Assembly: GCA_902589965.1 (NCBI GenBank)
Contig: CACIUX010000004.1
Location: forward strand, 14,877-78,876
Origin: an uncultured SAR86 cluster bacterium
GTDB lineage: Bacteria; Pseudomonadota; Gammaproteobacteria; Magnimaribacterales; AG-339-G14
DNA length: 64,000 nucleotides
Direction: 5' to 3'
Shown: one piece after another, positions 59,156 through 62,336 of the stretch
Layout: each line of letters begins with the position of its first letter
Numbering within the stretch: position 1 is the stretch's first letter
Notes under the pieces: model-generated
Database searches by the model: none
Told to the model about the DNA's origin: nothing
The model's input: only the letters and a program-made list of their open reading frames with translations
Position numbers and translations under genes: made by a program

Positions 59156-60319
59156 TTATAAAAGATTATTGATTCTTTTCAATGCCTCTTCTGTGGTTTC
59201 AAAATCATACACTAAAGCAATTCTTACGTATTTTTCTCCAGGGTTAAAACCATTTACCTCGGCGGATAAATAACTTCCAGGAAGTACAATTAAACCCTCT
59301 TTTTCAAGAATTTTTTTTGAGAATGATTCACCGTCTCTAACATCCAACCATAGATAGAAAGCACCTTCAGGAATTACGTTGCTTACTTTATCTTTAAGCA
59401 TATCTGCTGCCAGACTAAATTTATCATTGTAAGACTTTCTATTTTCAGCGACAAAATCATAATTCAGCCAAGCTTCAACGCTCGCTTTTTGAATTGGCAA
59501 AGGAACGCTGACCCCATGAAAAGACCTAAACTTCTTATAGGCAGAAATGGTTTTTTTACCGGAGCAAGCAAAACCCGATCTAAAACCAGGTAAATTGGAT
59601 CTTTTCGATAAGCTATGAAGAGCAACCAATCTATCCGATCTATCTGATGAAGCTTGTAGGATGCTTGGACAGGATTCCTCCGATGTATATAAATCCACAT
59701 AACACTCATCAGAAACAACATAAAAATCATACTTCTCAGCTAAATCTAAAATATCCTTAAGTTTACTAAGAGGTAAGACAGACCCAGTTGGATTGTTTGG
59801 GGAGCAGAGAACTAAAATTTGACACTTTTGCCAATCCTCACTTTTAAGGGAATCTAAATCAGGCTGAAAATTATCTTCTTCAGGACAATCCAGAAACTTT
59901 GCTTCTCCTCCAGCAAGAGTCGTTGCTCCACCGTAAATTTGATAGAAAGGATTAGGCATTACAACATAGGGCTTATCTTTAACATTCTCTTTATTAAAAA
60001 GAGCCTGAATAATTGAGAATGTTCCTTCTCTTGTGCCAGCTACAAGACAAACTTCATCCTCAGCAACATTCTCTATACCGAAATGACTTTTCAAATAGTG
60101 CCGATATGCCTCTGATAATTCAGGAACTGCATTCATAGGAGGGTAGTTTGAAAAAGAATTTGTTTCTTTATTCAAAATGTCCAGGACTTTGGAGTCAGCA
60201 TTTAATTTTGGCTCACCAATGGAAAGATTGATTACATCTTTTGATGGCTTTATGTCCTTATGAAGAAGATTAAGTTTTTCAAATGGATAAGATCCAATTT
60301 TAGACAGTAAATGATTCAT
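59156..60319 (-). CDS. dapC: Succinyldiaminopimelate aminotransferase (class I/II PLP)
   Basis: YPFEKL, IGEP, PNPFYQIY, SDECY, SLSKRSNLPGFRSG; adjacent to dapD. Confidence 0.9.
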   Translation of the reverse strand: MNHLLSKIGSYPFEKLNLLHKDIKPSKDVINLSIGEPKLNADSKVLDILNKETNSFSNYPPMNAVPELSEAYRHYLKSHFGIENVAEDEVCLVAGTREGTFSIIQALFNKENVKDKPYVVMPNPFYQIYGGATTLAGGEAKFLDCPEEDNFQPDLDSLKSEDWQKCQILVLCSPNNPTGSVLPLSKLKDILDLAEKYDFYVVSDECYVDLYTSEESCPSILQASSDRSDRLVALHSLSKRSNLPGFRSGFACSGKKTISAYKKFRSFHGVSVPLPIQKASVEAWLNYDFVAENRKSYNDKFSLAADMLKDKVSNVIPEGAFYLWLDVRDGESFSKKILEKEGLIVLPGSYLSAEVNGFNPGEKYVRIALVYDFETTEEALKRINNLL

Positions 60320-61107
60320 AGAGTTTCTTCTGATCTAGCAGTAAGAACTTCGCAGCCATCATCGGTTATAGCCAACGTATGCTCCCATTGGGCTGACAAT
60401 CTTCCATCAATAGTTTCTACTGTCCAGCCATCATTTTTAGATAATTTGGTTTTATGAGTCCCAAGATTAATCATAGGTTCAATGGTAAAACACATGCCTG
60501 CTTTTAATTCCATTCCAGTGCCAGGATTTCCGTAGTGAAGAATTTGTGGGTCTTCATGGAAAACTTTGCCAATACCATGTCCGCAGTAATCTCTGACAAC
60601 TGAGTAGTGATTTTCTTCTGCATGTTTTTGAATCACATAACCTATGTCACCTAGGTTTATTCCTGGTTTGCATATTGCTATGGCTTTATAAAGACATTCT
60701 TGAGTAATACTTACCAGCCTTTCTGCATGAGGTTGTTTTTTTCCAACAAAAAACATCTTGCTTGTATCTCCGTGGTAACCGTCTTTGATCACAGTTACAT
60801 CAATATTGATAATATCTCCGTTTTTTAGGACTCTGTTGTCATCAGGTATTCCGTGACAAACCACTTGATTTATCGAAGTGCAAATAGATTTTGGAAAACC
60901 ATTGTAATTTAGGGGAGCAGGAATACAGTCAATTTCATTGACAATGTAATCGTGACAGATTCTATCCAACTCACCTGTAGATACCCCTGGTTGAACGTGT
61001 TTTTCAATCATTTCCAAAGTTTGAGCTGCAAGCTTTCCTGCAACCTTCATTTTGGCTATTTCGTCAGAACTTTTAATCATTTTTTGAGATTTTACCTCAT
61101 AAGTCAT
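60316..61107 (-). CDS. map: Methionine aminopeptidase type I
   Basis: CHGIP, DVTV, GDTS, GHGIG, FTIEPM, QWEHT. Confidence 0.98.
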   Translation of the reverse strand: MTYEVKSQKMIKSSDEIAKMKVAGKLAAQTLEMIEKHVQPGVSTGELDRICHDYIVNEIDCIPAPLNYNGFPKSICTSINQVVCHGIPDDNRVLKNGDIINIDVTVIKDGYHGDTSKMFFVGKKQPHAERLVSITQECLYKAIAICKPGINLGDIGYVIQKHAEENHYSVVRDYCGHGIGKVFHEDPQILHYGNPGTGMELKAGMCFTIEPMINLGTHKTKLSKNDGWTVETIDGRLSAQWEHTLAITDDGCEVLTARSEETL

Positions 61108-61135
61108 AGACTTATTAAGTACTCTTCATTATAGT
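61107..61135 (+). promoter_or_regulatory. Putative sigma70 promoter for carAB
   Basis: TAGACT (61107-61112)-N17-TATAGT (61130-61135). Confidence 0.6.
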
Positions 61136-61144
61136 GTCCTTCTA

Positions 61145-61192
61145 ATGCCAATAGCATTAGAAAACATCCAAAACGCGAGACTAGAAATTTAG
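61145..61192 (+). CDS. Putative 15-aa leader peptide of carAB (MPIALENIQNARLEI)
   Basis: ATG 61145 to TAG 61190-61192, ending inside the terminator-like hairpin; no SD. Confidence 0.4.
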   Translation: MPIALENIQNARLEI

Positions 61193-61208
61193 TACCGCGT
61201 TTTTTTTT
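61170..61208 (+). terminator. Intrinsic terminator-like hairpin (attenuator) immediately before carA
   Basis: AAAACGCG-AG-ACTAG-AAAT-TTAGT-AC-CGCG then T9; no upstream same-strand gene to terminate. Confidence 0.6.
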
Positions 61209-61214
61209 GCCTAA

Positions 61215-62336
61215 ATGACAGAAAAAAAAGCATATTTATATCTAGATTCCGAAAGATTTTTTGAAGGTTTTTCAGTTGGGAAAAATGCTGATACTTGCGG
61301 AGAAGTCGTTTTTAATACTTCCATGTCTGGGTATCAGGAAATAATTTCCGATCCATCTTATACCGATCAAATTATTAATTTTACTTACCCTCACATAGGT
61401 AACGTAGGAACTAATGATGATGATTTAGAGTCCGATTCAAACGGATGTAATGGGGTCATCATCAGAGACCCGTCAACAATTACAAGCAATTGGAGAAAAC
61501 AGGATGATTTATCAAACTTCCTAAAGACAAAAAATATTTCAGGTATTTATGGAATTGATACTAGGAAAGTCACTCGAATAATCAGAAACGAAGGTGCAAA
61601 AGTAGGTGCCATCGTTTCCGGCAAAGATCATAAAAAGAAAGCGCTTAAATTAATTGAAGAGTTTGTGCCTTTAGGTGGAAAAGATCTCGCCTCAGTTGTT
61701 TCAACGAAAAAAGTATACGAATGGAAAGAACCCTCTTGGAGGAAGGATTTCGATGATAATAATTTAAAAATAGTTGCGATCGATTTTGGAGTAAAGCACA
61801 ACATTTTACGAATGCTTAAAGATAGAGGATTTCAGGTGATCGTGGTTCCAGCTAAAACAACTGCTGCAGAGATTATTGCAATGAAGCCCGATGGAGTATT
61901 TCTTTCTAATGGACCTGGTGATCCTGAACCCTGCAAGTATGCAATTGAATGCATCAAGGAACTAAGGACAAAAAGAATCCCAATGTTCGGCATTTGTTTA
62001 GGCCATCAACTTTTAGGATTAGCTTTGGGAATGAAAACTATCAAAATGAAGTTTGGACATCATGGCGCCAACCATCCAGTTAAAGACTTGGATTCAAATA
62101 GAGTTTTCATAACGAGCCAAAATCATGGATTTACCATTGATTCGAAATCAATTCCTGAGGATGTAAAAATTACACACCTTTCTTTATTTGATGAAACCAT
62201 TCAAGGAATAGAAACATCCGATAAAAGATGCTTCAGTTTTCAAGGACATCCCGAAGCTAGCCCCGGTCCGCAAGAAATACAAGAATTATTCGATAAATTT
62301 TTAACAGTAGTCAAAAGCAATGCCAAAAAGAAATGA
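61215..62336 (+). CDS. carA: Carbamoyl-phosphate synthase small subunit
   Basis: [38 protein letters not shown]. Confidence 0.98.

Follow-up and report, generated by a model that had tools for sequence, protein, structure and literature searches.

Introduction

Carbamoyl phosphate is a precursor of arginine as well as of the pyrimidines. The pyrBI (pyrL) and pyrE leaders of Escherichia coli are UTP-sensitive, translation-coupled attenuators with a U-rich pause region. According to the account cited here, reiterative transcription occurs at pyrBI, and in pyrC and pyrD of E. coli and Salmonella a nucleotide-sensitive choice of the start site makes or breaks a 5' hairpin (PMC6524683). The E. coli carAB operon is described as being controlled from two promoters with the participation of half a dozen proteins (PMC6245113). 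For carA of Pseudomonas aeruginosa a leader peptide has been described and attenuation by pyrimidines has been proposed (Kwon et al. 1994, as cited in PMC4997734). In beta-proteobacteria the carA motif RNA, an extended imperfect hairpin by the ribosome-binding site, has been put forward as a riboswitch (Brewer et al. 2021, PMC8632094). Here we analyze the carAB leader in a stretch of 64,000 nucleotides (nt; hereafter the window) from an uncultured SAR86 cluster bacterium (GenBank assembly GCA_902589965.1, contig CACIUX010000004.1, positions 14,877 to 78,876 of the forward strand), where a gap of 107 nt separates the divergent genes map and carA. A preliminary description of the window had suggested that carAB is controlled by a start-site switch combined with an attenuator that depends on a nearly leaderless upstream open reading frame (uORF). 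A limited search of the open-access literature retrieved no description of this leader.

Results

A leader unit upstream of carA in three families

The gap upstream of carA (61215..62336, plus strand; identified from the list of open reading frames and by tblastn to relatives) appears to hold a cis-acting carAB leader consisting of a promoter, a hairpin that contains an AUG, a uORF and an intrinsic terminator, an assignment that is supported by comparison with related genomes. The parts listed in the preliminary description, namely the promoter, the palindrome with its ATG, the ORF, the hairpin followed by T9 and the carA ATG 6 nt further on, are all found where it had placed them. RNA covering 61136-61230 folds into exactly two hairpins, the 5' hairpin and the terminator, with a free energy of −25.7 kcal/mol, compared to −8.9 ± 2.3 kcal/mol for 200 shuffles of the same segment (z = −7.2), none of which was as stable. 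The window as a whole has a G+C content of 35%.

The genome (1.12 Mb, 86% complete) belongs to an order of four families (f1 to f4) with low GC content and genome sizes of 0.6–1.8 Mb. We took carA loci from its relatives in f1 to f3 (109 loci with a carA match) and five additional loci from f4. Conservation in relatives, on which the earlier proposal had been made to depend, is observed in three of the four families: the unit of promoter, 9-nt spacing, ATG and hairpin occurs at 108 of the 109 carA loci of f1 to f3 in 89 unique versions, and the single locus without it has only 485 nt of upstream sequence.

The −10 element TATAGT (61130..61135, plus strand) is listed by a simple promoter scan with 9 of 12 matches and is separated by a 17-nt spacer from the −35 element TAGACT (61107..61112, plus strand), which shares a base with the map start codon (its last, on the other strand). 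All 89 unique leaders contain T(A/G)GAC 17 nt ahead of the −10 box and agree with the −10 consensus TA(T/A/G)AGT. The gap between the −10 box and the ATG measures exactly 9 nt in the conserved leaders, and the A of the leader AUG sits 10 nt past the box. Positions 1, 2, 4 and 6 of the −10 box (not the G at position 5), position 9 after the box and the ATG were forced by the search pattern, which also limited position 8 to T or A. The −35 box, positions 5 to 7 and the occurrence of T rather than A at position 8 were not forced.

Positions 5 to 10 past the −10 box form a start-site window that reads T-T-C-T-A-A (61140..61145, plus strand), and the T, C, T, A, A reported before for positions 6 to 10 (61141-61145) is correct. 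Over the 89 unique leaders, positions 5 and 6 are T in 88 each, position 7 is C or T, position 8 is T and positions 9 and 10 are A in all, so that 87 share the complete T-T-Y-T-A-A. A purine is never found at positions 5 to 8 (0/89), and positions 1 to 4 vary freely. At the level of sequence, a pyrimidine is thus found at the usual start position and a purine about 2 nt downstream, which is the arrangement of the pyrC/pyrD type. E. coli RNA polymerase is reported to initiate at position 6 in 8%, position 7 in 55%, position 8 in 29% and position 9 in 7% of cases and to prefer a purine, and the concentrations of the initiating nucleoside triphosphates also influence the choice (PMC5730371, as far as cited here). 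Because Y-Y-Y-A-A fills the start-site window and given these preferences of the polymerase, mixed starts that track the balance of pyrimidine nucleotides to ATP would be expected. Reiterative transcription was considered as a shared mechanism in view of the T4–T6 that precede AA in several genera, but it was rejected as the genus of the window has TTCT.

The 5' hairpin (61140..61162, plus strand; from folding and alignment A1) has 9 bp, a 5-nt loop and the AUG in its 5' arm. As described before, it is encoded by the perfect inverted repeat TTCTAATGC / caata / GCATTAGAA with the ATG at 61145-61147. The palindrome alone is weak evidence, with 14 of 100 shuffles of the window giving a match at ≤3 mismatches, and we consider the feature real because it is conserved in relatives rather than because of the palindrome alone. 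The claim that hairpin stability is set by the 5' end of the RNA is borne out by the predicted folds: with starts at positions 5, 6, 7 (C7), 8, 9 (A9) and 10 (A10), the hairpin reaches −9.8, −8.9, −7.3, −4.4, −3.0 and −1.5 kcal/mol, respectively, and an unpaired A in the AUG becomes more probable, from 0.002 with a start at position 7 to 0.37 with a start at position 10.

Alignment A1 comprises 58 leaders of f1 and f2 in 52 distinct rows. In it, every row has U8-A-A-U-G-C13 in the 5' arm, and the loop differs both in sequence and in length (4–6 nt). At stem pair 7-26, U-A occurs in 28 rows, C-G in 21 and U.G in 3, with a pyrimidine always at position 7. Pair 11-22 is lost in 21 of the 52 rows, and it is always the 3' arm that has changed. 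The partner of this 5' arm in f3 is a 3' arm at a distance of 19 nt, and the hairpin, which there carries a larger apical loop of about 11 nt over a 3-bp extension, is part of the minimum-energy fold of 27 of the 31 f3 leaders that were folded. Covariation had been suggested as a check for both hairpins. It is present in the terminator, where 7 of 10 pairs change on both sides, and in the 5' hairpin it is limited to one pair.

A reading frame that starts inside the hairpin

The uORF (61145..61192, plus strand) was read from the sequence and is the positional homologue of longer uORFs in relatives. It comprises 15 codons (MPIALENIQNARLEI) followed by a TAG stop at 61190-61192, which lies within the 3' strand of the inner stem of the terminator. 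Outside the genus of the window, the frame that begins at the conserved ATG is open for 23–37 codons in every one of 76 unique leaders, which represent 20 genera, and the other two frames of the same leaders mostly stop within 4–25 nt, with few exceptions. For shuffled sequence the median probability of an open frame is 0.12, and 20 of 20 genus representatives are open, a count that is not a probability as the genera share ancestry. In all 76 leaders the distance between the uORF stop and the next gene's start codon falls between −15 and +14 nt. For f3 (n = 31), 21 stops overlap the start as TAATG, TGATG or TAGTG, 6 do so as ATGA or TTGA and the remaining 4 stops lie 8 nt beyond it; the 27 overlaps include 4 rows in which a downstream in-frame ATG was taken instead of the first TTG. 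For f1 and f2 outside the genus of the window (n = 45), 21 stops lie 8 nt and 7 stops lie 5 nt past the start codon, after correction of two mis-called starts. Because the frame stays open and the stop lies near the next start in all 76 leaders, we conclude from the comparison that the uORF outside the genus of the window is real, translated and coupled to the start of carA or pyrF.

Within the genus of the window, the uORF has 8 codons in 4 of 13 genomes, 11 codons in 1, 12 codons in 1 and 15 codons in 7, and just 6 nt separate the T-tract from carA. The 15-codon ORF of the preliminary description is thus present and its AUG, hairpin and spacing are kept, but its length finds no support, given that the 8–15 codons of the 13 congeners correspond to chance. 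Likewise, the proposed conservation of the reading frame holds for the 76 leaders outside the genus and is not accompanied by a constraint on length inside it. The stops of this genus fall at offsets 24–45 from the AUG and the 5' arm of the terminator at offsets 25–32. In view of the known size of the ribosome footprint, a ribosome that terminates at the stop of any variant found in the genus would rest on the terminator's 5' arm or immediately ahead of it.

The uORF peptides share only what the hairpin and the T-tract dictate. Neither an arginine codon nor any other codon is conserved that could form a run for a sensed amino acid, and an attenuator based on arginine codons was rejected on these grounds. 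As a side observation, the frame +2 relative to the leader ATG (61147-61218) has no stop before a TGA that shares bases with the carA ATG (ATGA) in 10 of 13 genomes of the genus. This frame has no start codon, its ATGA overlap matches that of the true uORFs of other genera, and it may be the relic of a frameshifted, longer ancestral uORF.

Outputs downstream of the hairpin

The intrinsic terminator (61170..61208, plus strand) consists of an outer stem (61170-61177/61196-61203), an inner stem (61180-61184/61189-61193) and T9 (61200-61208); the stem has −13.4 kcal/mol and is followed by U9. A simple terminator scan, whose rule accepts loops of 3–8 nt only, did not report it, the real stem having an internal loop. 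In A1, 88.9% of the cells are paired, compared to 35–42% when the partners are slid, 7 of the 10 counted terminator pairs change on both sides in the 52 distinct leaders and T7–T9 follows the stem. As in an attenuator, an intrinsic terminator lies in the leader ahead of the structural gene and the leader ORF reaches its 5' arm; in f1 and f2 outside the genus of the window, the uORF spans the entire terminator. A U-rich pause region ahead of the terminator is not seen in the window, where 25 nt (61163-61187) contain 2 T; other genera are more U-rich at this place. Inspection by eye, without computation, gave no conserved antiterminator pairing between the 5' hairpin and the terminator.

The f3 leaders (L028-L032 and L098-L127) keep the promoter, the hairpin, the AUG and the uORF but have no terminator, and their uORF stop overlaps the carA start in 27 of 31 cases. 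A GGAG-like word ahead of carA is paired in about half of the f3 folds, in several of them with an upstream pyrimidine run within the uORF (L098, L105, L115, L125). These leaders would represent a translational version of the carAB leader switch, as far as the predicted folds go. Because f3 keeps the sensor without the terminator, the regulated step shared by the families would be initiation at the uORF and not the pausing of polymerase at the terminator. In genus g10 and part of genus g17 (L024 600-840, L069-L093), pyrF lies between the leader and carA in a pyrF-carA-carB unit, and the uORF stop is −6 to +13 nt from the pyrF start codon. This insertion links the leader to pyrimidines.

The five f4 loci (L063-L067) have neither the hairpin nor the terminator, and their carA ATG follows a TATAGT at a distance of 14 nt. 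The word TTCTAA(A/T)TG is present beside the start codon of map in these loci and may be a remnant of the leader.

The carA start had been noted to be devoid of a Shine-Dalgarno (SD) sequence. This is correct but not distinctive: by a rough measure (first-ATG starts, within 20 nt upstream), no more than 12 of the window's 50 long ORFs are preceded by an SD-like word. SD-independent initiation seems to be usual in this SAR86 genome. U9 (61200-61208) is complementary to A8 (61222-61229) in carA codons 3–5 (GAA AAA AAA), and the fold pairs the two with the carA AUG in the loop; the A8 run occurs in the genus of the window only.

Distribution, regulators and transcripts

A search of the own genome for the palindrome at ≤3 mismatches returned the carA site and one site with 3 mismatches (contig C3 16648-16670, L002), and in the genomes of relatives the palindrome typically occurs once, at carA. 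Covariance model R1 found the carA site alone in the own genome (E = 3.8e-9; next matches E > 2) and no relative in 150 other genomes of the class. The sole match there (E = 0.001) was rejected as an ordinary terminator after a transporter gene, between transporter genes. We conclude from these searches that there is no regulon, and a relative outside the order was not seen in this sample. An Rfam scan of 60900-61400 with E up to 10 returned rows at chance level only (best E = 0.24), among them no pyrimidine or carA family and no PyrR site. In the genome, which is 86% complete, no match to the Arg_repressor domain PF01316 was obtained (an AraC-type ArgR, as in Pseudomonas, was not searched for), and the best match to the PyrR model NF003549 reached 19 bits with a cut-off of 138. 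The conserved ligand-binding pocket of a riboswitch, formed by invariant unpaired bases of a multi-helix fold, is not seen: the leader offers a single 7–9 bp hairpin, a variable loop of 4–6 nt and an A-rich spacer, with no Rfam match.

The gene map (60316..61107, minus strand; from the ORF list) encodes methionine aminopeptidase and is divergent from carA; it is also the neighbour in the relative locus L024, where it was read directly, and in the flanks of relatives. Its candidate −10 element is a perfect TATAAT (61128..61133, minus strand) that overlaps the TATAGT of the plus strand (61130-61135), so that one AT-rich core (61128-61135) may serve both the carA leader and the map promoter. At the other end of carA, carB starts at 62320 and overlaps the carA 3' end by 17 nt (62320-62336).

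The lineage is present in metatranscriptome runs from 12 studies (22 runs listed, as Logan contigs). RNA contigs were aligned from runs X1, X2, X7 and X11. One X1 contig of 1964 nt spans map, the intergenic region and carA. The carA contigs of X2, X7 and X11 begin at 61288, 61267 and 61290, i.e. 50–75 nt inside carA, and pile-ups of contig beginnings or ends are not seen. One X11 contig over map aligns up to 61122, about 7 nt past the minus-strand TATAAT. The end of this single contig is a weak hint at a map start there.

Discussion

For this leader we infer start positions, a blocking of termination by the ribosome and a signal as follows. Transcription would begin 6–10 nt past TATAGT, and the first 23 nt of the RNA would fold into a hairpin that holds the uORF AUG with almost no 5' untranslated region. 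As the most likely signal we propose the nucleotide pool, with RNA polymerase acting as its sensor. Positions 6–8 would only allow starts with UTP or CTP and yield a stable hairpin, and positions 9–10 would allow starts with ATP and leave 4–5 weak pairs and a nearly leaderless AUG. A ribosome that loads on the accessible AUG would move onto the terminator 5' arm 26–34 nt downstream, the terminator hairpin would not form and polymerase would enter carA. With the AUG buried, the terminator hairpin and U9 would end transcription near 61203-61208 and release an RNA of some 60–65 nt. Ample pyrimidines would thereby turn carAB off, and pyrimidines that are scarce relative to ATP would turn it on. 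In f1 and f2 the translating ribosome would prevent termination, in f3 it would open the structure and couple into the carA start.

We estimate a probability of about 50% that the element acts as a protein-free, ribosome-gated transcription attenuator for carAB. That it is an attenuator of some kind based on its leader ORF is probable. The promoter, the start window, the buried AUG and the uORF are shared whereas the output module differs by family, and we therefore regard access to the AUG as the candidate regulated step, a view for which the chances are evenly balanced. The choice of the start site as the sensor is a tentative idea drawn from the conserved start window. A polymerase that acts as the sensor, with one start-site sensor wired to two expression platforms and neither ArgR nor PyrR found, is likewise a possibility that we rate on the doubtful side.

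Several observations weigh against this interpretation. The search pattern itself fixed some bases of the −10 box as well as position 9 and the ATG, and the genomes are related, so that the leaders are not independent samples. The gap of 9 nt between the −10 box and the AUG places the latter 2–3 nt beyond the usual start position, and a polymerase of the E. coli type would rarely initiate as far away as position 10 to give a truly leaderless RNA. In 45 of the 52 distinct rows of A1, U-A occupies pairs 5-28 and 6-27; this may mean that starts occur upstream of position 7, or it may be incidental to an A-rich 3' flank. Just one pair of the 5' hairpin covaries, perhaps in two or three events, and with respect to covariation the case for RNA rather than DNA would thus not be a strong one. 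In the genus of the window, the uORF stops 25–46 nt before the carA ATG and is thus not coupled to carA. Its 8–15 codons are a length expected by chance at a stop density of 8.6%, as taken from the other two frames of the leaders of relatives, and a function of the uORF in this genus would follow from homology and geometry. The four RNA runs consist of assembled contigs without observed 5' or 3' ends. As to novelty, start switching, pyrimidine attenuators with leader ORFs and leaderless leader peptides are known separately, and only their combination and the two output modules would be new.

If the leader were an attenuator of the pyrBI type with one fixed start, UTP-sensitive pausing would let the leader ribosome catch up and block the terminator. 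The uORF that spans the terminator and T-tract in f1 and f2 outside the genus of the window, as in pyrimidine leader attenuators, would suit this explanation, as would the terminator loop and 3' half that are U-rich in several genera and the failure to find a protein regulator. The invariant T-T-Y-T-A-A and the fixed 9-nt spacing would then be without explanation, f3 retains hairpin, AUG and uORF with no terminator to be blocked, and the window has no U-rich pause region. Because of the latter two points, the start-switch model fits better than pure pausing of the pyrBI type, which we regard as unlikely. The same verdict applies to the role that the 5' hairpin would have in such an attenuator, that of a mere pause or synchronizing hairpin or of a device setting a low basal rate of initiation. 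In the Thermus pyr leader, PyrR blocks leader translation. With this precedent, a trans-acting, PyrR-like RNA-binding protein could hide the leader AUG by binding the 5' hairpin and would itself be the sensor; the stem UAAUGC/GCAUUA is indeed far more conserved than pairing alone requires. Such a protein would have to tolerate a loop of 4–6 nt in f1/f2 and about 11 nt in f3 as well as mismatches from the 3' arm in 21 of 52 rows, even though the 5' arm never changes. With a single site per genome, no PyrR above the cut-off and no Rfam match to a PyrR site, we consider it improbable.

The palindrome had alternatively been taken as a DNA operator shared with map. It would then bind a dimeric repressor of carA and perhaps map, with the potential to form a hairpin as a by-product, and its perfect 9-5-9 symmetry just downstream of the promoter, its position beside divergent map and the conservation of its half-sites agree with such a role. 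The separation of the arms is 5 nt in f1, 4–6 nt in f2 and 19 nt in f3, genus g2 has a U.G pair that can form as RNA only, and there is one copy in the genome and typically one, at carA, in relatives. Because of these three features we read the repeat as an RNA hairpin; neither an adjacent regulator gene nor an ArgR domain was found at or for this site, and an operator is very improbable. It is also hardly probable that the leader is not a switch at all, i.e. that a transcript-stabilizing hairpin is combined with a leaky constitutive terminator, or that the product of about 65 nt is a small RNA that acts elsewhere. Promoter, 5' hairpin and terminator are the anatomy of small-RNA genes, too, a small transcript from the carA 5' untranslated region has been proposed in Pseudomonas syringae (as mentioned in PMC4997734), and the length of the uORF is unconstrained in the genus of the window. 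This explanation would have to account for the linkage to carA or pyrF-carA at 108 of 109 loci, for a uORF that is kept and coupled to the next start in all 76 leaders outside the genus, and for the invariant sequence of the start window.

Under the preferred reading of a ribosome-gated leader, an organism with a genome of about 1.1 Mb, in which our searches found neither ArgR nor PyrR, seems to control carAB with RNA logic of about 100 nt. If the start site is indeed the sensor, the principle known from pyrC/pyrD would no longer be confined to one translational switch but would serve as a general sensor, able to drive a transcription attenuator as well, and the leader would exemplify regulated leaderless initiation in proteobacteria. 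A more conservative reading still leaves a widespread cis-regulatory leader of a marine lineage that is uncatalogued in the sense of having no Rfam match. The design that the comparison of relatives outlines for these abundant, small-genome marine bacteria combines an invariant start window, a leader AUG held in a hairpin and two alternative outputs.

Comparison with known systems

The carAB leader resembles pyrC/pyrD, as they are presented in the cited account, in that pyrimidine starts would use the usual position and purine starts a position two bases further on, here as read from the sequence. In both cases, it takes the additional 5' bases to complete a hairpin that lies at the extreme 5' end and hides a translation start, and no protein is needed. 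According to the same account, the pyrC/pyrD hairpin covers the enzyme gene's own ribosome-binding site and acts on translation, whereas the hairpin of the carAB leader would hide the AUG of a leader ORF, with termination (f1, f2) or coupled translation (f3) as the outcome. The purine is A here and G there.

With the pyrBI and pyrE leaders, the carAB leader has in common a leader ORF that enters or crosses an intrinsic terminator upstream of a pyrimidine gene, and a ribosome that would serve as the antiterminator without a repressor. It differs from them by the lack of a U-rich pause region in the window, by an AUG that is free of a leader and embedded in a hairpin, and by the f3 version without a terminator. 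The likeness to P. aeruginosa carA, going by the description of that system alone, consists of the same gene in proteobacteria, a leader peptide and a proposed attenuation by pyrimidines; Pseudomonas differs in that it also uses the ArgR protein. The leaderless leader-peptide attenuators of Actinobacteria sense an amino acid via runs of regulatory codons, as reported in 10.1101/834739, whereas in the carAB leader only codons fixed by the hairpin or the T-tract are conserved and the AUG is buried in a hairpin. Finally, the carA motif of beta-proteobacteria is a conserved structure directly upstream of carA, too, and its hosts appear to manage without the two-promoter control of E. coli. That motif lacks a uORF, a terminator is not described for it, and no Rfam family matched the leader described here.

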